Numbered from the stretch's first letter, positions 1 to 13,030 are shown. The stretch is DNA of 64,000 nucleotides from Alphaproteobacteria bacterium (GCA_964291675.2 OZ219866.1:448001-512000), one strand, 5' to 3'. Notes: generated by a model not told the origin, from the sequence alone. Numbers and translations: made by a program.

Positions 1-525
1 AACCGGCTTCACGCTGTCCTCGTAGACGTTGACGTACTGCCCGTCGCCGCCCGCGTGCTTGGCCTCCAGCGAGTCGAGGTCGGCGGCGGTGAACACGTAG
101 CGCGCGTTGGGGAAGGTGGGCTCCCAGCGCCCGTCCACGAGGCACGTGTTCCAGCCGACATGGTCGACATGGAGGTGGGTGATCAACACGAGGTCGATGT
201 CGTCGGGCGCGTAGCCCGCCGCCGCCAGGTTCTCCAGCCAGGGCCACTGGCCGTCCGTCCAGTAATCCCGCCGGCGCCCCGGCTTGTCGTTGCCGACGCA
301 GGTGTCGATCAGGATGGTGCGTTCGCCCGCGCGGAACACGTAGCTCTGCATGCAGGATTCGAGCAGCCAGCGCGCCTCGTCGAAGAAGCGCGGCATCAGC
401 CAGCCCCGCTCGCGCTCGAAATCGCCGGGCGTGGAATCCGGGTACATCGCCCCGGGATCGAAGATCGGCGTGTCGTCCTCGAGCACCCGGGCGAGCTCCA
501 GCCTGCCGATGGTCACCGTCGCCAT
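1..525 (-). CDS. MBL-fold metallo-hydrolase (3' end runs off the window)
   Basis: Hand translation from ATG at 525: MATVTIGRLELARVLEDD...ILIDTCVGNDK...LITHLHVDHVGWNT...PTFPNARY; HxHxDH motif; GGAGG RBS upstream. Not in ORF track because incomplete. Confidence 0.85.
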   Translation of the reverse strand, partial: MATVTIGRLELARVLEDDTPIFDPGAMYPDSTPGDFERERGWLMPRFFDEARWLLESCMQSYVFRAGERTILIDTCVGNDKPGRRRDYWTDGQWPWLENLAAAGYAPDDIDLVLITHLHVDHVGWNTCLVDGRWEPTFPNARYVFTAADLDSLEAKHAGGDGQYVNVYEDSVKPV

Positions 526-555
526 TGCATCCTCCGACCGAGCCTTCCCCCAAGT

Positions 556-667
556 CGTCTTGGCCGGCCCCCGGATCAAGTCCGGGGGTGATCCGGGCAT
601 CTCTCTCCGCAAGTCCAGCCTGTCGCCCGGAAGCCGCTTCATCGCCGGAGCAAGTCGGGCCATGACG
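556..667. repeat. REP-like palindromic element with nested hairpin
   Basis: Imperfect terminal inverted repeats CGTCTTGGCC (556) / GGCCATGACG (ends 667); perfect internal stem CCCCCGGA-TCAAG-TCCGGGGG (568-588). Confidence 0.6.
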
Positions 668-718
668 CGGCGGGGGCGCCGCGCAAATGGATAGAAACTT
701 GGGGAGTACGACACTAGC

Positions 719-1579
719 ATGGGATTTTACGATCGCGCGAACGGCAAGACGATGTCTCACCCTTGCGCCGCGCCGCATGCGGTCACCGCGGCCGAGTTCG
801 ACTGCGAGGTGATCCGCAACGATGCGGTCAACGCCGAGTACATGCATATCGTGGCGACCGCCGAGCCGCTCGCGACATCGATCCGGGCCGGCCAGTTCTT
901 CCACATGCTGTGTCCGAAGGGCGGGGCGAACGCCCCGTTCTTCCGCCGCCCGATGAGCGTCTACCGGGCCGACCCGGAGCACGGCACGGTCGCCTTCCTC
1001 TACAAGGTGACCGGCAGCGGGACGCGGGCGCTGGCGACGCTGGCGCCGGGCGACCGGCTCGACTTGTTCGGGCCGCTCGGCGTCGGCTTCGCGCTGGAGC
1101 CCGGGTGGCGGCGCATCGTGGTGGTCGGGCGCGGGGTGGGGCTTGCGACGCTCGCCCCGCTGGCCGAGCTCGCGGCGGCGAGCGGGGTGGGCGTGACGGC
1201 GGTCCTGAGCGCGCGCTCGCCGGCGGTGATGATGTCGGCCGACCGCTTCCAGGCGATCGGCGCCGAGACGATCGAGGTCACCGACGCCGAGGGGACCAGC
1301 GGCCCCGCCCGGCTGGAGCGCACCCTGCGCGGGCTGATCGCGGAAGGCCGGGCGGATGCGTTCTTCACCTGCGGCTCCAACCGGCTGCTGCTGCTGCTCC
1401 AGCGCCTCGGGCGCGAGTTCTCCATCCCCGGCCAGGTCGCGCTGGAGCAGCAGATGGCCTGCGGGCTCGGCATGTGCTTCTGTTGCGTGCGCGAGTTCCG
1501 CGTGGGCGACGGCGTCGCCCACCGCCGGGTGTGCTGGGACGGTCCGGTGTTCGACCTTCAGGAGGCGATCTCTTGGTAG
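719..1579 (+). CDS. pyrK: Dihydroorotate dehydrogenase electron-transfer subunit (FAD, 2Fe-2S)
   Basis: RRPMS FAD motif, GPLG, GRGVGLA, C-terminal EQQMACGLGMCFCC...VCWDGPVF cluster motif. Confidence 0.9.
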   Translation: MGFYDRANGKTMSHPCAAPHAVTAAEFDCEVIRNDAVNAEYMHIVATAEPLATSIRAGQFFHMLCPKGGANAPFFRRPMSVYRADPEHGTVAFLYKVTGSGTRALATLAPGDRLDLFGPLGVGFALEPGWRRIVVVGRGVGLATLAPLAELAAASGVGVTAVLSARSPAVMMSADRFQAIGAETIEVTDAEGTSGPARLERTLRGLIAEGRADAFFTCGSNRLLLLLQRLGREFSIPGQVALEQQMACGLGMCFCCVREFRVGDGVAHRRVCWDGPVFDLQEAISW

Positions 1580-2520
1580 ACATGCGCGTCGAGATCGGCG
1601 GGGTGGCGATGGCCAACCCGGTAATGCCGGCCTCCGGAACCTTCGCCGACGGGCTCGACAAGGCGGTCGATTTCGAACGCCTGGGGGCCATGGTGATCAA
1701 GACCATCACCCGCGAGCTCCGGGTCGGCAACGCGCTGCCCCGGGTCTGCGAGACGCCGGAGGGGATGCTGAACTCGATCGGCATCCCGTCCAAGGGGATG
1801 GACTATTTCCACGCCGAGACCCTGCCGCTCTATGCGCGCTACTCGACGCCGCTGGTGGTCAGCATCTCGGCGCCGACGGTGGCCGGCTTCGCCAGCCTCG
1901 CCGAAGAGGTGAGCCTGCCGGGCGTCGCCGCGATCGAGATCAACATCTCGTGCCCCAACCTGGAAGCCGACGGCCAGGCCTTCGCCAACTACACCGAGTC
2001 CACCGAGCGCGCCGTCGCGGCGATCCGCCGGCGCACCTCGCTGCCGCTCTGGGCCAAGCTCTCGCCCAACGTCACCGACGTCGCCGAGATCGGCCGCGCG
2101 GCGGAGGCCGCCGGCGCCGACGCGCTGGTGGTCGCCAACACCTTCCTCGCCATGGCGGTCGACATCGAGAGCCAGCGTCCCAGGCTCGGCAGCGTCACCG
2201 GCGGGTTGTCCGGCCCCGCGATCCGGCCCATCGTGGTCCGCATGACCTATCAATGCGCGCGCGCGGTCGACATCCCGGTGATCGGCTGCGGCGGGATCGC
2301 GACGGCGGACGACGCGATCGAGTACATGCTGGCCGGCGCCAGCGCGGTCCAGGTGGGAACCGTCACCTTCCTCCACCCGACGGCGATGATCTCGGTCCTC
2401 GACGGCATCGAGGATTACTGCCTGCGGCGCGGCTATGCGCGCGTGACCGACCTCGTGGGCGCGCTCTCGGTCGAGGAGGCGGACGAGACCGACATGGAAT
2501 GGGTCGACCCGCTGCGATGA
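1573..2520 (+). CDS. pyrD: Dihydroorotate dehydrogenase catalytic subunit, class 1B (NAD-dependent)
   Basis: NPVMPASGTF, MLNSIG, EINISCPN (class 1 catalytic Cys), KLSPN, GGLSGPAIRP, GASAVQVGT. Start TTG 1573 (GGAGG 7 nt upstream) or ATG 1582. Confidence 0.88.
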   Translation: MVDMRVEIGGVAMANPVMPASGTFADGLDKAVDFERLGAMVIKTITRELRVGNALPRVCETPEGMLNSIGIPSKGMDYFHAETLPLYARYSTPLVVSISAPTVAGFASLAEEVSLPGVAAIEINISCPNLEADGQAFANYTESTERAVAAIRRRTSLPLWAKLSPNVTDVAEIGRAAEAAGADALVVANTFLAMAVDIESQRPRLGSVTGGLSGPAIRPIVVRMTYQCARAVDIPVIGCGGIATADDAIEYMLAGASAVQVGTVTFLHPTAMISVLDGIEDYCLRRGYARVTDLVGALSVEEADETDMEWVDPLR

Positions 2521-3794
2521 GCGAAACCGCCCTCCAGCCCGCCCGGGAAGAGCTGCGCACGCTCGCCGTCGAGACCTTCGACACGCTGCGCCGGGCCACC
2601 GCCGCCAGGCAGGGCGTGTCGCGCGAGAGCTTCGGCGCGGGCGAGAACGCGGCGCTTGAGATCCTGGTCGACCTCGCCCGCCGGTTCGGGCTCGAGACCG
2701 GCACCGACCGGGCCGCAAACCTGCTGATCTCGCTGCCCGGACAGGCGCGGGCGACGCCCTATATCGCCTGCGGATCGCACATGGATTCGGTGCCGGAGGG
2801 GGGCAATTTCGACGGCGCCGCCGGGGTGGTCGCGGGGCTGCTGGCGCTGGTGCGCGCGCGGATGGAGGACGCAAGGCCGAGACACCCGGTCCGGGTGATC
2901 GCGCTGCGCGGCGAGGAGAGCGCCTGGTACGGCAAGGCCTGCGTCGGGTCGAGCGCGCTGTTCGGCCGGCTGCAGAAGGCCGACCTCGCCTCGGTCCACC
3001 GCGACGGGACGGGCACGCTGGGCGAGGCGATGAAACGCGAAGGCGCCGCGGTCGAGGCGATCGAGGCGGGCACGCCGCTGGTCGACCCGGCCGACATCGC
3101 GGGCTATGTCGAGCTGCACATCGAGCAGGGTCCGATCCTGGTCGCCGACAGCCTGCCGACCGCCGTGGTGACCTCGATCCGCGGCAATCTGCGCCACCGC
3201 CGCATCCGCTGCATCGGCGAGGCGGGACATTCGGGCGCGGTGCCGCGCGGGCTCAGGAACGATCCGGTCATGGCCGCCGCCGCGCTGATCCATGCGCTCG
3301 ACAACCACTGGCGGGACTGGCTGGAGCGGGGGCACGACATCGTGGTGACCACCGGCATCGTCGAGACCGACGCCCGGTCGCATTCGGTCTCGCGCATCGC
3401 CGGCGAGGTCGATTTCAGCTTCGAGGTGCGCAGCGAGGACCGGGCGACGCTGGAGGGGTTCTACGAGCTCATGCGGGGCGAGTGCGACCGGATCGCCGAC
3501 GAGCGCCGGGTGATGTTCAACTTCGACCGCAGGGTCGACGCCCCGCCCGCGGTGATGGACCGGCGCTGGGTCGACAAGCTGCTGGCGCATGCCCGCGCGC
3601 TGTCGCTACCCGAACGCACGATTTTGAGCGGCGCCGGCCACGACGCGGCGCTGTTCGCCGCGGCCGGAATCCCGTCGGCGATGATCTTCATCCGGAACCA
3701 CAACGGCTCGCACAACCCGAACGAGGCGATGGACATCGACGACTTCCTCAAGGGCGCCGACCTGCTCTACCGCGCGCTGATCGACCCGCCGTGA
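2517..3794 (+). CDS. M20-family Zn-dependent N-carbamoyl-amino-acid amidohydrolase (allantoate amidohydrolase/ureidopropionase-like)
   Basis: [47 protein letters not shown] motifs; ATGA overlap with pyrD stop. Confidence 0.88.
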
Positions 3795-4846
3795 CGGGCG
3801 AGCGCATCGAGATCGCGCGGCCGGACGACTGGCACCTCCATCTCCGCGACGGCGCGATGCTGCACACCATCGTCGGCTTCTCGGCGGCGGTGTTCGGCCG
3901 CGCCATCGTGATGCCCAACCTGGTGCCGCCGGTGCGCGTCCCGGAGGAGGCCGAGGCCTATCGCGCGCGTATCCGGGCGGCGCTCCCCGACGGCCATCCG
4001 TTCGAGCCGCTGATGACCGCCTACATGACCGACAGCGCCGATCCGGCGGATATCCGGGCCGGGTTCGAGAGCGGCATCTTCCACGCCGTCAAGCTCTACC
4101 CGGCCGGCGCCACCACCAACTCCGAGATGGGGGTGACGCGCATGGCGGCGATCCGCCCGGTGCTGGCGGAGATGGAGAAGATCGGCATGCCGCTCCTGGT
4201 CCATGGCGAGGTCGCCGATCCCGAGGTCGACGTGTTCGACCGCGAGGCGGTCTATATCGAGCGCGTGCTCGAGCCGATGCGGCGCGGCTTCCCGGGGCTC
4301 AGGGTGGTGCTGGAACACGTGACCACGGTCGATGCCGTCGAATACGTGCGCGCCGCCGAGAGCGGGCTCGCGGCCACGATCACCCCGCATCACCTGATGA
4401 TCAACCGCAACGCCATCTTCCGCGGCGGGCTCCGCCCGCACATGTATTGCCTCCCCGTCGCCAAGCGCGAGCGGCACCGCCTGGCGCTGCGCGCGGCCGC
4501 GGTCTCGGGCGATTCGCGGTTCTTCCTCGGCAGCGATTCCGCCCCCCATCCGCGGCGCGACAAGGAGGCCGATTGCGGCTGCGCGGGAATCTTCAACGCG
4601 CCCAACGCGCTGCAATGCGTGGCGCAGGTCTTCGACGAGGAGGGCGCGCTCGACCGGCTCGAAGGTTTCGTGTCCCGCGCGGGCGCGGAATTTTACGGAA
4701 TGGCGCCGAATTCCGACCGCATCGTCCTCGAAAAGGGGGTAGTTTCCGAGGCGCCCCGGGAGCGGGTGGGGGTCGCGGACCACGCGATCAGGGTGTTCGA
4801 CCCCGGCACGCCGGTCTTTTGGCGGATCGTCTCCGGCCTCCGGTGA
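3791..4846 (+). CDS. pyrC: Dihydroorotase (E. coli-type homodimeric)
   Basis: [49 protein letters not shown]; GTGA overlap with upstream stop. Confidence 0.93.
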
Positions 4847-4881
4847 GCCAGCCGGGCGCGTGCGACAGAGCGGAGGGACAG

Positions 4882-5577
4882 ATGCTGCCGACGGCGTTCC
4901 CGGACGAGGCGCAGGTCGCCGAGATGACGGCGCGGATGCTGATCGAGGTCGAGGCGGTACGCTTCCGCGCCGAGGACCCCTACCGCTTCACCTCGGGCTG
5001 GGCGAGCCCGGTCTATATCGACTGCCGGCGGCTGATCTCGTTCCCGCGGGTGCGCCAGACGCTGATGGATTTCGCCGCCTCGGCGATCGTCCGCGAGGTC
5101 GGGTTCGAGACCATCGACGCCGTCGCCGGGGGCGAGACCGCCGGCATCCCCTTCGCCGCCTGGATCGCCGACCGGCTGATGCTGCCCATGCAGTATGTCC
5201 GCAAGCAGGCCAAGGGGTTCGGCCGGGACGCCCAGATCGAGGGCGATTTCGAGGCCGGCTCCCGCGTGATCCTGGTCGAGGACCTGACCACCGACGGGCA
5301 GAGCAAGATCCGCTTCTGCCAGGCGCTGCGCGAGGCGGGCGCCATGGTCAATCACACCTTCGTGATCTTCCACTACGACATCTTCCCGCAGACCCACGAG
5401 CTGCTGGAGCGGATGGACATGAAGATGCTCTCGCTCGCCACCTGGTGGGACGTGCTCGCGGTGTGCAAGAAGCACGCCTATTTCGACGCCGCCACGCTGG
5501 ACGAGGTCGAGAGCTTCATGAACGACCCGGTCGCCTGGTCCGCCGCGCATGGCGGCGCCTCGGAGCTCGCGGGCTGA
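4882..5577 (+). CDS. pyrE: Orotate phosphoribosyltransferase
   Basis: [32 protein letters not shown]-binding [11 protein letters not shown]; GGAGG RBS. Confidence 0.92.
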
Positions 5578-5767
5578 CCCGCCGAACGATGCGGGCCGAA
5601 TAACGCTGCCTTTCCTGTATTCAGCCGGCGACAAGCTCTGTAAATTGCCCCGGATTGAGGATGCCCGCACCGCCCGGGACGGCTCGGCTGCGCCCTGGGG
5701 GGATTCGCGTTTGCGCGGAGGCGCGGAAATCTCTCATTATGCGCCAGTCCCAGGAGGGAGACCGAAG

Positions 5768-6796
5768 ATGACAGGGAAAATCAGGCCGCTCGCGCTCGCG
5801 GCGGCGGTATCGGCGGCGGTGGTGCTCGGCAGCGTCAGCGCCCAGGCGGCGACCAAGATCCGGCTCACGCTCGACTGGATTCCGCAGTCGACGCACGGGC
5901 TGATCTTCATCGCCCAGTACGAGGGCTACTACAAGGCCGAAGGCCTCGACGTGAAGATCGACGAAGGCCGCGGCTCGGCCGACGCGGTCAAGAAGCTGGT
6001 CAGCGGCACCCACGATATCGGCCTCGCCGACATCAACGCCTTGATCCAATACAACGCCAAGAACAAGGGCGCCGAGATCAAGAGCGTCATGATGATGTAC
6101 GAGCAGCCGCCCTTCTCCATCTTCGTCTTGAAGAAGTCGGGCATCACCCATCCCAAGCAGCTCGTCGGCAAGACGCTGGGCGCGCCGGTGTTCGATGCCA
6201 GCTACAAGCTGTTCCCGGCCTTCGCCAAGGCGATCGGCATCGACCCGAACGCGGTGAAGAAGAAGAACATGGACCCGCGCCTGCGCGAGCCGATGCTCAT
6301 CCGGGGCGAGGTCGACGCGATCTCGGGGCACGTGTTCTCCTCGATGCTCAACCTCAAGGCGGCCGGCGTCAAGGAAGAGGACGTCACCTTCTTCATGTAC
6401 GGCGACCACGGCATGGAGTCCTATGCCAACGGCGTTGCCGTGCGCCCCGACTTCATCGCCAAGAACGCGGACGCGGTGCGCGGCTTCGTGCGGGCGACGA
6501 TCAAGGCGACCCGCGACATGGTGCAGAAGCCCCAGCTCGCGCTCGATTCGGCCAAGAAGTTCTCGCCACTGCTCGTCGAGTCGGTCGAGGCCGACCGGCT
6601 GCGGCTCGGCATCAAGTGCTGCGTGCTGACGCCGAACGTGCGCAAGAACGGCTATGGCGGCATCGACATGGCCCGGCTGCAGCGCTCGATCGACCAGGCG
6701 GCGGACGCCTACGGCATCAAGGAGCCGCCGAAGGCCGCCGACATGTGGCTCGACGGCTTCCTGCCGCCGCAGTCCGAACGCTTCATCCACAAATAG
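5768..6796 (+). CDS. ABC transporter substrate-binding protein, NMT1/THI5/TauA family
   Basis: Signal peptide; LDWIPQSTH, GYYKAEGLDVKI, GRGSAD; GGAGGGAG RBS. Confidence 0.85.
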   Translation: MTGKIRPLALAAAVSAAVVLGSVSAQAATKIRLTLDWIPQSTHGLIFIAQYEGYYKAEGLDVKIDEGRGSADAVKKLVSGTHDIGLADINALIQYNAKNKGAEIKSVMMMYEQPPFSIFVLKKSGITHPKQLVGKTLGAPVFDASYKLFPAFAKAIGIDPNAVKKKNMDPRLREPMLIRGEVDAISGHVFSSMLNLKAAGVKEEDVTFFMYGDHGMESYANGVAVRPDFIAKNADAVRGFVRATIKATRDMVQKPQLALDSAKKFSPLLVESVEADRLRLGIKCCVLTPNVRKNGYGGIDMARLQRSIDQAADAYGIKEPPKAADMWLDGFLPPQSERFIHK

Positions 6797-6803
6797 GGTG
6801 CCC

Positions 6804-6826
6804 GGGGCGGGCCGCGTGCCCGCCCC
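6804..6826 (+). other. Intercistronic stem-loop after the substrate-binding gene
   Basis: GGGGCGGGC-CGCGT-GCCCGCCCC, 9-bp perfect stem, no U-tract. Confidence 0.55.
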
Positions 6827-6849
6827 CACCCCTTCCTTCGAGACCGTCG

Positions 6850-7656
6850 ATGGCATTCATCGAGATCGACGAGATCGACCTCACCTACCGCAACAGCGCG
6901 GGCGACGAGGACGATGCCGGCACGCTGGCGCTGCAAGGCGCCAGCCTGACCATGGAACGCGGCGATTTCATCTCGCTGGTCGGGCCGAGCGGCTGCGGCA
7001 AGTCGACCCTGCTCAAGGTGGTCGCCGGGCTGATCCGGGCCAATAAGGGGCGGGTATCGGTCGCCGGCCAGGTGGTCGACCAGCCGCTCAAGATCGTCGG
7101 CATGGCGTTCCAGAACGCGACCCTGCTGCCGTGGCGCTCGACGCGCGAGAACGTGCTGCTGCCGATGGAGATCGTCGAGCCGCATCGGAAGCAGTTCCGC
7201 AGGGAGAAGGCGAAATACGAGGCCATCGCGGACGAGCTGCTGGCCACCGTCGGTCTCGACGGGTTCGGCGACCGGGCGCCCTGGCAGCTCTCGGGCGGGA
7301 TGCAGCAGCGCGCCCAGCTATGCCGCGCCCTGGTGCACGAGCCCGACCTGCTGCTGCTCGACGAGCCGTTCGGCGCGCTGGATGCGTTCACCCGCGAAGA
7401 GCTCTGGGACGTGCTCCAGGCGCTCTACATGAACCGGAAATGCACGGTGATGCTGGTCACCCACGATCTGCGCGAGGCGGTCTACCTGGCCGACAAGGTC
7501 TACGTGATGAGCGCGAGGCCGGGCCGGGTGATCCTCGAGCGCGACATCGAGATCGAACGGCCGCGCAAGCTGGAGCACATGTACCAGCGCGAGACCGTCG
7601 AGCTGGTCCAGGAGCTGCGCCACCACATCAACATCGCGAGAACCGACGATGAGTAG
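6850..7656 (+). CDS. ABC transporter ATP-binding protein (TauB/SsuB/NitT type)
   Basis: Walker A GPSGCGKST, LSGGMQQR signature, LLLDEPFGALD, VTHD. Confidence 0.92.
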   Translation: MAFIEIDEIDLTYRNSAGDEDDAGTLALQGASLTMERGDFISLVGPSGCGKSTLLKVVAGLIRANKGRVSVAGQVVDQPLKIVGMAFQNATLLPWRSTRENVLLPMEIVEPHRKQFRREKAKYEAIADELLATVGLDGFGDRAPWQLSGGMQQRAQLCRALVHEPDLLLLDEPFGALDAFTREELWDVLQALYMNRKCTVMLVTHDLREAVYLADKVYVMSARPGRVILERDIEIERPRKLEHMYQRETVELVQELRHHINIARTDDE

Positions 7657-8431
7657 GAAAACCCTCGAGATTCTGTCGCCGTGGATCGTCACGCTGATCG
7701 TCATCGTCATCTGGGAGGTCGGCGTGCGCGCGTTCGACGTGCCCGCGGTGGTGCTGCCGACCGCGAGCGCGTCGTTCTACGCGATATGGGAGTGGCGCGA
7801 GGGGCTGTGGCACAACGCGATCCCGACGCTGGTGGCGACGCTGCTGGGGTTCGGCATCGCGGTCGTGTTCGGCATCGTGATGGGGGTCTTCATCGGCATC
7901 TCCAAGCCGGTCTATGCCGCGCTCTACCCGCTGCTGGTCGCCTTCAACAGCATCCCCAAGGTAGCCATCGTGCCGATCCTGATGGTGTGGTTCGGGATCG
8001 GGCTGACCACGGCGACGATCACCGCCTTCATCCTCTGCTTCTTCCCGATCGTGGTGAACGTCGCGGTCGCGCTGGCGACCATCGAGCCGGAGCTGCGCGA
8101 CGTCTTGCGCGCGCTCGGCGCGCATGAGCGCGACATCGTCATCAAGGTCGGGATCCCGCGCTCCCTCCCCTATCTGTTCGCCTCGCTCAAGATCGCGATC
8201 ACGCTGGCCTTCGTCGGCGCGGTGATCGCCGAGACCGTGGCGGGCGGCGACGGGATCGGCCATCTGATGCTGGTCGCCAGCTCGAACTTCAACATGGCGC
8301 TGATGATCGCCGGGCTGATCGTGATCGCCGCCATGGCGATCGGCATGTACGCGATCTTCGCGGTGCTCGACCGGCGCTTCACCGGCTGGGCGACGCGCGG
8401 CGACATCCAGTACGCCACGGCGGGCGGCTAG
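7649..8431 (+). CDS. ABC transporter permease (TauC/SsuC type)
   Basis: Multiple hydrophobic segments; NSIPKVAIVP; EAA-loop-like LRALGA...IPRSLPYLFASLK. Confidence 0.9.
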   Translation: MSRKTLEILSPWIVTLIVIVIWEVGVRAFDVPAVVLPTASASFYAIWEWREGLWHNAIPTLVATLLGFGIAVVFGIVMGVFIGISKPVYAALYPLLVAFNSIPKVAIVPILMVWFGIGLTTATITAFILCFFPIVVNVAVALATIEPELRDVLRALGAHERDIVIKVGIPRSLPYLFASLKIAITLAFVGAVIAETVAGGDGIGHLMLVASSNFNMALMIAGLIVIAAMAIGMYAIFAVLDRRFTGWATRGDIQYATAGG

Positions 8432-8439
8432 CCGCCGGC

Positions 8440-8468
8440 TTGCAACGGATCAAGCGGTGTGATACCAA
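8440..8468 (+). promoter_or_regulatory. Putative sigma70 promoter of the atp operon
   Basis: TTGCAA-N17-TACCAA about 100 nt upstream of atpH. Confidence 0.4.
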
Positions 8469-8569
8469 GCCCTGCCTTCGAGAACCGGGCTCCGAACCGG
8501 GCGTCGCGATAGCCGAAATCGCGCTGTATTTCAAAGAGTTGCCGCCGATACGGTCAGGGTTGGAAAGAC

Positions 8570-9129
8570 GTGTCCGCAACGCCGATTGACGTGTCCGGCC
8601 TGCCCGGGCGCTATGCCAATGCGCTGTTCGAGCTGGCGGACGAACGGGGCGCTCTCGATCCGGTGATGGACGATCTGGCGACGCTGCGATCGATGATCCG
8701 CGAGGCGCCGGAGTTCGCGCTTGTGCTCACCAGCCCGGTGATCGGCCGCGACGAGCAGGCGGCGGCGGTCGACGCGGTGATGGAGCGCGCCGGGATCGGC
8801 GAGCTCGCGCGCCGCTTCGTCAACGTGGTCGCGCGCAACCGCAGGCTGTTCGCGCTGCCCGGGATGATCGAAATCTACCGGGCGCTGCTGGCCGCCCGCC
8901 GCGGCGAGATCGCCGCCGAGGTGATTTCGGCCGCGCCGCTGAGCGAGGCCCAGCGGGCGGCGCTGGAGACGGCGCTGACGCGCTCGGTCGGCGCCAATGT
9001 CTCGATCGATCTCAGGGTCGATCCCGCCATCCTCGGCGGGCTGGTCGTGAAGGTCGGCTCGCGCATGGTCGATTCCTCGCTCAGGACCAAGCTGGACAAG
9101 CTGCAGATATCGATGAAAGGGGCCGCGTG

Positions 9130-9130
<1 letters not shown>
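8570..9130 (+). CDS. atpH: ATP synthase F1 delta subunit
   Basis: [35 protein letters not shown]; first gene of the operon. Confidence 0.95.

Positions 9131-13030
<3,900 letters not shown>

Follow-up and report, generated by a model that had tools for sequence, protein, structure and literature searches.

A candidate ureidosuccinase gene within the principal pyrimidine operon of an alphaproteobacterium

Results and Discussion

An M20 amidohydrolase gene among the pyrimidine genes

Here, we describe a pyrimidine gene cluster from an alphaproteobacterial genome of 4.8 Mb, which is assembled in two contigs (C1 and C2) and is rated 93.7% complete with 6.7% contamination. The stretch of DNA that was analysed, in the following called the window, comprises 64,000 nucleotides (G000:C2:448001-512000). 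The cluster consists of eight plus-strand genes at positions 719-8431, none of which contains an internal stop in the reading-frame check. Between pyrD and pyrC it carries the gene of an M20-family amidohydrolase (hereafter M20), which we consider a candidate ureidosuccinase. Since the dihydroorotate dehydrogenase (DHOD), the type-II dihydroorotase and the orotate phosphoribosyltransferase of the window are the sole canonical copies, the operon must, judged by the gene complement, serve de novo synthesis. What M20 adds is, as our best guess, the route from orotate via dihydroorotate and carbamoyl-aspartate to aspartate. We see the chances as evenly balanced that the genome's principal pyrimidine operon, with this candidate ureidosuccinase in it, works in both directions.

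The genes and intervals of the cluster are, in window coordinates:

714-751, plus strand: conserved 5' leader, near-invariant in an alignment with four same-genus loci
752-1579, plus strand: pyrK-like gene, flavin adenine dinucleotide (FAD)/NAD(H)- and 2Fe-2S-binding electron-transfer subunit of a class-1B DHOD, 275 aa (PF10418)
1582-2520, plus strand: pyrD, catalytic subunit of a class-1B (NAD-linked) DHOD / orotate reductase, 312 aa (NF005574)
2517-3794, plus strand: M20 hydantoinase/carbamoylase-family amidohydrolase, 425 aa, candidate N-carbamoyl-L-aspartate amidohydrolase (ureidosuccinase) (TIGR01879)
3791-4846, plus strand: pyrC, type-II (E. coli-type, homodimeric) dihydroorotase, 351 aa (TIGR00856)
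4882-5577, plus strand: pyrE, orotate phosphoribosyltransferase of the NF001729 type, 231 aa (NF001729)
5578-5767, plus strand: pyrE-transporter spacer, 190 nt, 3' half conserved in an alignment with the same-genus locus L101
5768-6796, plus strand: NMT1/THI5-like periplasmic substrate-binding protein, 342 aa, with a signal-peptide-like N-terminus (PF09084)
6850-7656, plus strand: ATP-binding cassette (ABC) transporter ATPase, 268 aa (PF00005)
7649-8431, plus strand: ABC transporter permease, 260 aa, overlapping the ATPase gene by 8 nt (PF00528)

A first-pass annotation had read the cluster as pyrK-pyrD(1B)-carbamoylase-pyrC-pyrE followed by an ABC importer, and family typing bears out this layout on the plus strand. 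The overlapping stop and start codons which it reported throughout the first four genes are present at two of the three junctions, i.e., as 4-nt overlaps of pyrD with M20 (ATGA at 2517-2520) and of M20 with pyrC (GTGA at 3791-3794); the remaining junction, pyrK to pyrD, is a gap of 2 nt. Wider gaps follow between pyrC and pyrE (35 nt) and between pyrE and the binding-protein gene (190 nt). The annotation had also placed pyrB, pyrF and carAB outside the cluster. This is correct for pyrB, the genome's only aspartate carbamoyltransferase gene, which is located on the other contig (C1:818309-819436, also delimited as C1:818372-819310; TIGR00670, 265 versus a cut-off of 237), and for pyrF (C2:3405570-3406223). 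As to carAB, the two genes are not among the eight typed cluster genes, and no search aimed at them was made. The surroundings of pyrB (C1:810000-824000) contain open reading frames which, by sequence appearance only, resemble two molybdopterin oxidoreductases, a CoA-transferase, a short-chain dehydrogenase/reductase and an aldehyde dehydrogenase.

Dihydroorotate dehydrogenases of the genome

Window PyrK carries the DHODB_Fe-S_bind domain (PF10418, 45.3 versus a cut-off of 23.9; profile scores are given in this form throughout) and a CX4CX2C...C motif in its C-terminus. It remains below all four NCBIfam PyrK equivalog cut-offs, the best being NF000799 (127.9 versus 314), and pyrK adjoins pyrD in every related locus examined. 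Window PyrD is typed by NF005574 (341.3 versus 269) and TIGR01037 (297 versus 270) and is below the cut-off of the PreA model NF006183 (137 versus 335). Its closest solved structure is DHOD B of Lactococcus lactis (1ep1, 229 bits). We defined a PyrD signature from the 23 positions conserved between window PyrD and 1ep1, among them the NISCPN loop with the catalytic Cys, and found it identical or nearly so across the M20-linked PyrDs and different in proteins of the PyrD2 type (see below). The Lys and Asn residues which in the L. lactis enzyme belong to the pocket for orotate and flavin mononucleotide (FMN) are likewise all conserved in the alignment with 1ep1.

A PF01180 profile search of the genome yields four DHOD-family genes, window pyrD included. 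The second belongs to a stand-alone pyrK/pyrD pair on the minus strand (C2:2747727-2749500), whose two proteins share 55% and 47% identity with their window counterparts. PyrD2, the PyrD of this second pair, carries the substitutions N64Q, N126T (the Asn of the SCPN loop), S210V, G211S and T260Y, and is probably a DHOD-like reductase acting on a different substrate. Pairs of the PyrD2 type also occur in L102, L103 and L105, relatives that have a class-2 PyrD, which argues for an accessory family and not for a housekeeping enzyme. The third is a class-1A-like protein of 292 aa (C1:817430-818308; K40G, N163S, N186V, T187N), encoded directly beside pyrB; its gene is present in 12 of 12 genomes of the genus and was seen in neither of two other genera of the relatives set, g4 and g5. 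The fourth, a protein of 447 aa (DHOD-family match at C2:1211112-1212092), was at one point considered as a class-2 pyrD product (26% identity) and was dropped, as family typing marks it as PreA-like. By its signature residues, window PyrK/PyrD appears to be the genome's only canonical DHOD.

Class-2 pyrD (TIGR01036) was not found in any of the 12 genomes of the genus g1, to which the genome described here belongs, in the one genome of g4 or in the two of g5; several of the g1 genomes are single-contig and 100% complete. All 16 relatives outside these three genera have it. The first-pass expectation that alphaproteobacteria usually employ a class-2 PyrD is hence right for those 16 relatives and wrong for the present genome.

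pyrC, pyrE and related genes

The pyrC product (TIGR00856, 409.5 versus 292.95) is the sole above-cut-off match in the genome. Two type-I cyclic amidohydrolases (C2:404462-406090 and C2:2844554-2845969) pass the broad pyrC_multi domain cut-off; one of them is best typed as allantoinase, and both are below every dihydroorotase equivalog. Window PyrE matches NF001729 with 395.5 versus 245 and the structure 4ohc in the Protein Data Bank (PDB) with 331 bits, and an alignment shows both its phosphoribosyl pyrophosphate (PRPP) motif and the lysines of its flexible loop. Profile and similarity searches of the genome found neither a second type-II pyrC nor a second pyrE. Of the separate class-2 pyrD, pyrB and second pyrC by which the first-pass annotation would have recognised a catabolic role, only pyrB was found, and the cluster holds the genome's only pyrD and pyrC of canonical type, an outcome which that annotation had named as speaking against its reading.

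At C2:2169076-2171700, a hydantoinase/dihydropyrimidinase-like gene adjoins an M20 carbamoylase homolog 33% identical to the window M20; this is a separate pair of the hydantoin or dihydropyrimidine type.

The M20 protein

The window M20 scores above the subfamily cut-off of TIGR01879 (276.3 versus 204). It is below the allantoate amidohydrolase cut-offs of TIGR03176 (AllC, 195.3 versus 597.75) and NF006775 (239.2 versus 479) and below that of the ErtE model NF058540 (282.3 versus 520). The second-best NCBIfam match is the subfamily model NF006771, named 'allantoate amidohydrolase' (369.8 versus 399). Among solved structures the allantoate amidohydrolase 1z2l is closest; the beta-ureidopropionase-type structures 8c46 and 1r3n reach 128.7 and 117 bits, respectively. 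The metal and catalytic motifs (His/Asp/Glu-Glu/His/His) align with those of 1z2l and of the L-carbamoylase 3n5f and are invariant over 87 homologs. Two arginines, R162 and R222, are present in 95% and 100% of the pyr-linked M20 group and in 0% and 9% of the proteins outside it; such residues would be compatible with a substrate that bears a second carboxylate. Database names of the homologs are generic, either Zn-dependent hydrolase or N-carbamoyl-L-amino-acid hydrolase. Ureidosuccinase activity was described in the 1950s; in open-access papers and preprints, we found neither a gene assigned to it nor a published gene cluster for orotate catabolism.

Conservation and linkage of M20

In a set of 31 related genomes, the present one counted, an M20 ortholog occurs in 25. 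All eight relatives' M20 loci that were sampled show the order pyrK-pyrD-M20, and seven of them also contain pyrC and pyrE; the eighth is a contig of 3.4 kb. A class-2 PyrD was found in 10 of the M20-positive genomes and not found in 15, and it was found in all six genomes that lack M20. PyrE of the NF001729 type is present in 24 of the 25 M20-positive and in one of the six M20-negative relatives.

A wider survey covered the best 80 of 575 confirmed M20 relatives on contigs from one genome per species, with a radius of 4 kb around each gene. Where M20 is at least 45% identical to the window protein, pyrE or a pyrE-like gene lies within this distance in 32 of 37 loci, and the same 37 loci contain pyrK together with pyrD in eight cases and pyrC in six. 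Below 45% identity, no pyr gene at all was found (0 of 43 loci). Contig ends truncate two of the five exceptions (L012, L037), a third (L057) contains pyrK-pyrD, and two Propionivibrio loci are without a scored pyrE. Among the carriers are Bordetella, Comamonas, Methylobacterium, the SAR116 cluster, Rhodocyclaceae, Stella, Roseinatronobacter, Paracoccus and a metagenome-assembled genome of the Desulfocapsaceae. By these comparisons, we regard the window M20 and its close relatives as a distinct pyr-linked orthologous group. A lack of M20 conservation beside the pyr genes, which the first-pass annotation had named as speaking against its reading, is clearly not seen.

Across 201 alphaproteobacterial genomes, the NF001729-type PyrE is present in 82. 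M20 is found at E<=1e-80 in 11 of them, and just five of these reach at least 45% identity. Because M20 is rare when set against this PyrE type, it is an accessory and not a core biosynthetic step.

Accessory versions of the module in other bacteria

In Roseinatronobacter (L042), the genes are arranged as XRE regulator, the tripartite ATP-independent periplasmic (TRAP) importer genes DctP and DctM, pyrK, pyrD, M20 and a second pyrE. A DHOD match of class-2 scale and a pyrC-pyrE pair are located elsewhere in that genome. The DctP protein matches PDB 4NN3 with 421 bits, and the next structure reaches 160. 4NN3 is a binding protein of Maridesulfovibrio salexigens crystallised with orotic acid (PMC11668362). 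Paracoccus (L057) similarly carries pyrK-pyrD-M20, with a second DHOD match and a pyrC-pyrE pair apart from it.

Several carriers have a second, divergent PyrE linked to M20. In Bordetella tumbae, Comamonas testosteroni and C. aquatica, the linked copy scores 85, 75 and 65 bits with TIGR00336, and the canonical copy 205, 185 and 186 bits, respectively. In Methylobacterium gregans the linked PyrE is the stronger of two weak matches, and in a SAR116 genome it is the sole good one. In the M20-linked paralogs, the motifs for PRPP and for the loop are preserved, as is the C-terminal extension that marks PyrE of the NF001729 type. A compact unit of such a divergent pyrE paralog followed by M20, without pyrK, pyrD or pyrC, is seen in L014-L017, L019, L023-L026, L033 and L038, the hosts being Bordetella, Comamonas, Methylobacterium, Rhodocyclaceae and others. 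In the two loci of this kind that were family-typed (L014, Bordetella tumbae; L025, Methylobacterium gregans), M20 and pyrE are flanked by a divergent LysR regulator upstream and by a binding protein of the TctC or polar-amino-acid ABC type downstream. The compact unit suggests a use of carbamoyl-aspartate or dihydroorotate rather than of orotate.

Overall, the accessory modules fit the uptake and use of orotate or of its reduced and its ring-opened precursors. Within them, M20 would be the exit which releases nitrogen and PyrE the exit which forms nucleotides.

The ABC importer

The binding protein passes only the broad NMT1 domain model (PF09084, 142.5 bits) and is below the SsuA/taurine cut-offs of TIGR01728 (57.7 versus 163.5) and TIGR01729 (43.9 versus 304.25). 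The ATPase (PF00005, 109.9 bits) resembles the NitT/TauT family at a score below the cut-off, and the permease matches PF00528 with 89.6 bits. The solved structure closest to the binding protein is ThiY, which binds the pyrimidine N-formyl-4-amino-5-aminomethyl-2-methylpyrimidine (FAMP; 3ix1), at just 64.6 bits. The hallmark of a ThiXYZ-type importer is a ThiY-like binding protein under the control of a thiamine pyrophosphate (TPP) riboswitch. Such an importer for FAMP or 4-amino-5-hydroxymethyl-2-methylpyrimidine (HMP) was rejected here, given the weak ThiY match and no TPP riboswitch in 1-9000.

Orthologs of the binding protein (41-53% identity) are present in 12 of 200 other alphaproteobacteria. 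Beside the closest outside ortholog of the importer (L122; G084:C7, about 4250-10650) lie two same-strand genes which look like xanthine dehydrogenase genes, by sequence appearance only; these neighbours hint at a heterocycle as substrate of this transporter family. Orotate or a similar heterocycle may be the cargo of the importer, whose link to the operon is specific to the genus; orotate itself is a plausible guess that we nevertheless consider less likely than not. A promoter of its own is possible for the transporter, because sequence conservation is seen in the 3' half of the 190-nt spacer.

A model for an operon with two directions

The reactions of PyrKD and PyrC are reversible, and the operon would therefore be able to run two ways. 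In the forward direction, carbamoyl-aspartate would be converted to dihydroorotate, orotate and orotidine monophosphate (OMP), as in de novo synthesis of uridine monophosphate (UMP). In the backward direction, orotate and NADH would give dihydroorotate and carbamoyl-aspartate. M20, translationally coupled between pyrD and pyrC, would then hydrolyse N-carbamoyl-L-aspartate to aspartate, CO2 and NH3 (EC 3.5.1.7), which would make the backward route irreversible, while PyrE would salvage part of the orotate. As to the cofactor, class-1B DHODs use NAD+ (PMC10395836). Gene identities, copy numbers, conservation and linkage are direct observations, and from the gene context we infer the substrate of M20 and the reverse flux.

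Regarding its origin, the lineage may once have held the module beside a class-2 PyrD and later lost the class-2 enzyme. Such a takeover is probable, because class-2 PyrD is missing exactly in three genera which carry the module (g1, g4 and g5) and coexists with it in many relatives. The whole picture, in which M20 is the missing ureidosuccinase gene, the quinone-linked DHOD has given way to a once accessory NADH-orotate-reductase module, and synthesis and breakdown share one translationally coupled operon, is put forward tentatively, as possible rather than probable. If true, it implies a kinetic or allosteric control that protects the biosynthetic carbamoyl-aspartate from hydrolysis.

Several observations weigh against an operon with two directions. 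A carbamoyl-aspartate hydrolase translated together with the sole PyrC and PyrD would withdraw the intermediate from de novo synthesis and set up an ATP-wasting cycle with aspartate carbamoyltransferase. A high Km, which would turn M20 into an overflow valve, or allosteric control would avert this futile cycle; neither safeguard can be recognised in the sequence, and we regard this as the main weakness. It is gene context alone that points to the M20 substrate. The claim of a sole canonical DHOD is based on signature residues, and PyrD2 itself passes NF005574 (320.6 versus 269). The ratings of the genome for completeness (93.7%) and contamination (6.7%) are a further reservation. Furthermore, 24 of the 32 pyrE-linked M20 loci are without pyrK or pyrD; orotate reduction is therefore no general trait of the M20/PyrE pair. 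No regulator is found among the typed genes of the locus, and the accessory versions carry dedicated ones. With respect to uptake, the importer genes follow pyrE in four of four same-genus loci (L009, L010, L027, L101) only and are absent from the cluster loci sampled in g4, g5 and other relatives. No pyr gene or M20 was found near the importer orthologs in six loci sampled from the 12 genomes mentioned above, and the window binding protein is of a different family from the orotate-binding 4NN3.

Alternative explanations

The operon could be purely biosynthetic, with M20 as an internal safety valve or repair enzyme and no use of external orotate. As a valve, M20 would keep carbamoyl-aspartate from building up whenever high NADH brings the NAD-linked DHOD to a standstill; as a repair enzyme, it would clear N-carbamoylated amino acids which arise from stray carbamoyl phosphate or cyanate. 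This explanation accounts well for the only canonical pyrD, pyrC and pyrE of the genome being in this operon, for a locus without regulator and with a merely genus-specific transporter link, and for the co-occurrence of M20 with the NF001729-type PyrE (24 of 25 versus one of six relatives). It is also in line with the SAR116 genomes and L013, where M20 is found by a housekeeping-type pyrE (in L013 also by pyrC), without a class-1B DHOD and without a match to the window transporter. We nevertheless consider it unlikely, given that M20 is missing in most alphaproteobacteria having the same PyrE type, and that uptake and use of an external compound better explains the accessory operons of several taxa, which combine regulators, transporter genes and a second PyrE and in one case include a close 4NN3 homolog. 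The opposite extreme is the first-pass proposal of an operon dedicated to orotate uptake and reductive catabolism or salvage, apart from de novo synthesis. Its gene content corresponds to the orotate route of Clostridium oroticum, and in Roseinatronobacter and Paracoccus accessory modules do exist beside a class-2 pyrD and a separate pyrC-pyrE. The conserved M20 and the regulated, transporter-linked modules elsewhere are what endures of the proposal. For the operon of the window, which holds the sole biosynthetic copies, it is very improbable: neither a class-2 pyrD nor a further type-II pyrC or pyrE that could take over synthesis was found in the genome, its remaining DHOD-like proteins have altered catalytic pockets, and the locus shows neither its own regulator nor a conserved transporter link.

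M20, perhaps together with the importer, might also act on a ureido compound outside pyrimidine metabolism, e.g., on the purine degradation products allantoate or ureidoglycolate, or on a different N-carbamoyl amino acid, so that its position in the operon would be a historical accident. NF006771 as second-best model, the allantoate amidohydrolase 1z2l as best structure, and the xanthine-dehydrogenase-like genes adjoining the importer ortholog in one genome (by appearance only) can be cited in support. All allantoate amidohydrolase equivalogs, though, are far below cut-off (AllC, 195.3 versus 597.75), and there is no other purine-catabolic gene among the eight typed genes of the window. Moreover, a tight and exclusive linkage to pyrE or pyrE-like genes (32 of 37 versus 0 of 43 loci) across Alphaproteobacteria, Betaproteobacteria and one Desulfobacterota genome is hardly accidental. 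A non-pyrimidine substrate thus has, in our view, only a slim chance of being correct.

Comparison with known systems

The fermentation of orotate by Clostridium (Zymobacterium) oroticum proceeds via an NADH-orotate reductase, a dihydroorotase and ureidosuccinase (EC 3.5.1.7). These three steps can be mapped, in this order, onto PyrK/PyrD, PyrC and M20 of the window, and both systems have an NAD-linked, reversible class-1B DHOD. They differ in that the window enzymes double as the sole biosynthetic copies, that pyrE is part of the unit, and that the host is an aerobic or facultative alphaproteobacterium and not a fermenting clostridium. The assignment of the C. oroticum orotate reductase to the class-1B DHODs follows PMC10395836.

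The reductive catabolism of uracil and thymine (PreTA/PydA, dihydropyrimidinase and an M20-type beta-ureidopropionase) follows the same logic of reducing, opening and decarbamoylating the ring, with enzymes of the same superfamilies. In the window, however, the reductase and the ring-opening enzyme are canonical orotate and dihydroorotate types above their cut-offs, PyrD with its orotate-pocket signature intact, and not PreA or a hydantoinase. ErtD/ErtE of ergothioneine catabolism, with an N-carbamoyl-L-glutamate amidohydrolase, belong to the same M20 carbamoylase family, and their substrate is one carbon longer than carbamoyl-aspartate; the window M20 is not a member of ErtE by its score, and no ergothioneine-pathway genes adjoin it.

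Firmicute-type de novo pyr operons such as that of Bacillus subtilis contain pyrK-pyrD. They share with the window a class-1B pyrK/pyrD pair grouped with pyrC and pyrE for biosynthesis. The window unit, in contrast, is without pyrB, pyrF and PyrR and, among its typed genes, without carAB (which were not searched for); it has M20 between pyrD and pyrC, and its pyrC is of type II, not type I.

A further counterpart is the module of Roseinatronobacter (L042), whose pyrK, pyrD, M20 and pyrE are orthologous to those of the window with 54%, 56%, 47% and 51% identity. L042 is equipped with a dedicated XRE regulator and a TRAP importer; its pyrE is a second copy, pyrC is missing from it, and the housekeeping genes lie elsewhere in that genome. 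The window is without regulator, has an ABC importer of another family, and contains single-copy genes only. Its peculiarity lies in the module having turned into the sole pyrD/pyrC/pyrE operon.

M20 offers a widely distributed candidate gene for ureidosuccinase. A candidate carbamoyl-aspartate-degrading enzyme hard-wired in the only pyrD-pyrC-pyrE operon poses a question of flux control that can be tested. In addition, the replacement of the class-2 by an NAD-linked class-1B DHOD in three genera of one alphaproteobacterial family bears on the redox coupling of pyrimidine synthesis under anaerobic/aerobic cycles or inside hosts. The conserved M20/PyrE pair suggests that orotate, dihydroorotate and carbamoyl-aspartate are traded as nutrients more often than recognised.

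Leader, spacers, RNA-library sequences and neighbouring genes

The start of pyrK is placed at 752 and not at the upstream ATG at 719, because that codon is ATA in two same-genus relatives and an in-frame TAG is present in all four aligned loci. In the leader 714-751, no Shine-Dalgarno-like sequence is seen ahead of the ATG at 752. The promoter scan gave no site, the leader and the spacer 5578-5767 included. Four terminator-like sites were obtained, which is not above shuffled controls, and none passes in 5578-5767. An Rfam scan of 1-9000 (E<=1) returned one match only, at chance level.

The gap between the binding-protein and ATPase genes (6797-6849) contains a GC-rich inverted repeat, GGGGCGGGC...GCCCGCCCC, which may be a stabilising hairpin within the operon.

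A sponge-metatranscriptome RNA library (X1, Logan contigs) contains pieces with 90-100% identity covering pyrD/M20, pyrC, pyrE, the binding protein and the permease, one contig of 708 nt spanning the pyrD/M20 junction. From such contigs neither the amount of transcript nor its strand nor the limits of the operon can be read, and the library may contain carried-over DNA, so that the evidence amounts to the presence of these sequences in an RNA library.

Upstream of the cluster, a gene for a metallo-beta-lactamase (MBL)-fold hydrolase occupies window positions 1-720 on the minus strand (full gene G000:C2:447662-448720), with weak lactonase-like matches. It diverges from pyrK and keeps its position in g1, g4 and g5 (68-89% identity, six loci); in the remaining relatives it is not beside the cluster. 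Downstream, the interval between the permease gene and atpH shows a weak terminator-like hairpin at 8505-8523, and atpH, atpA, atpG and atpD (8570-13030) come next.

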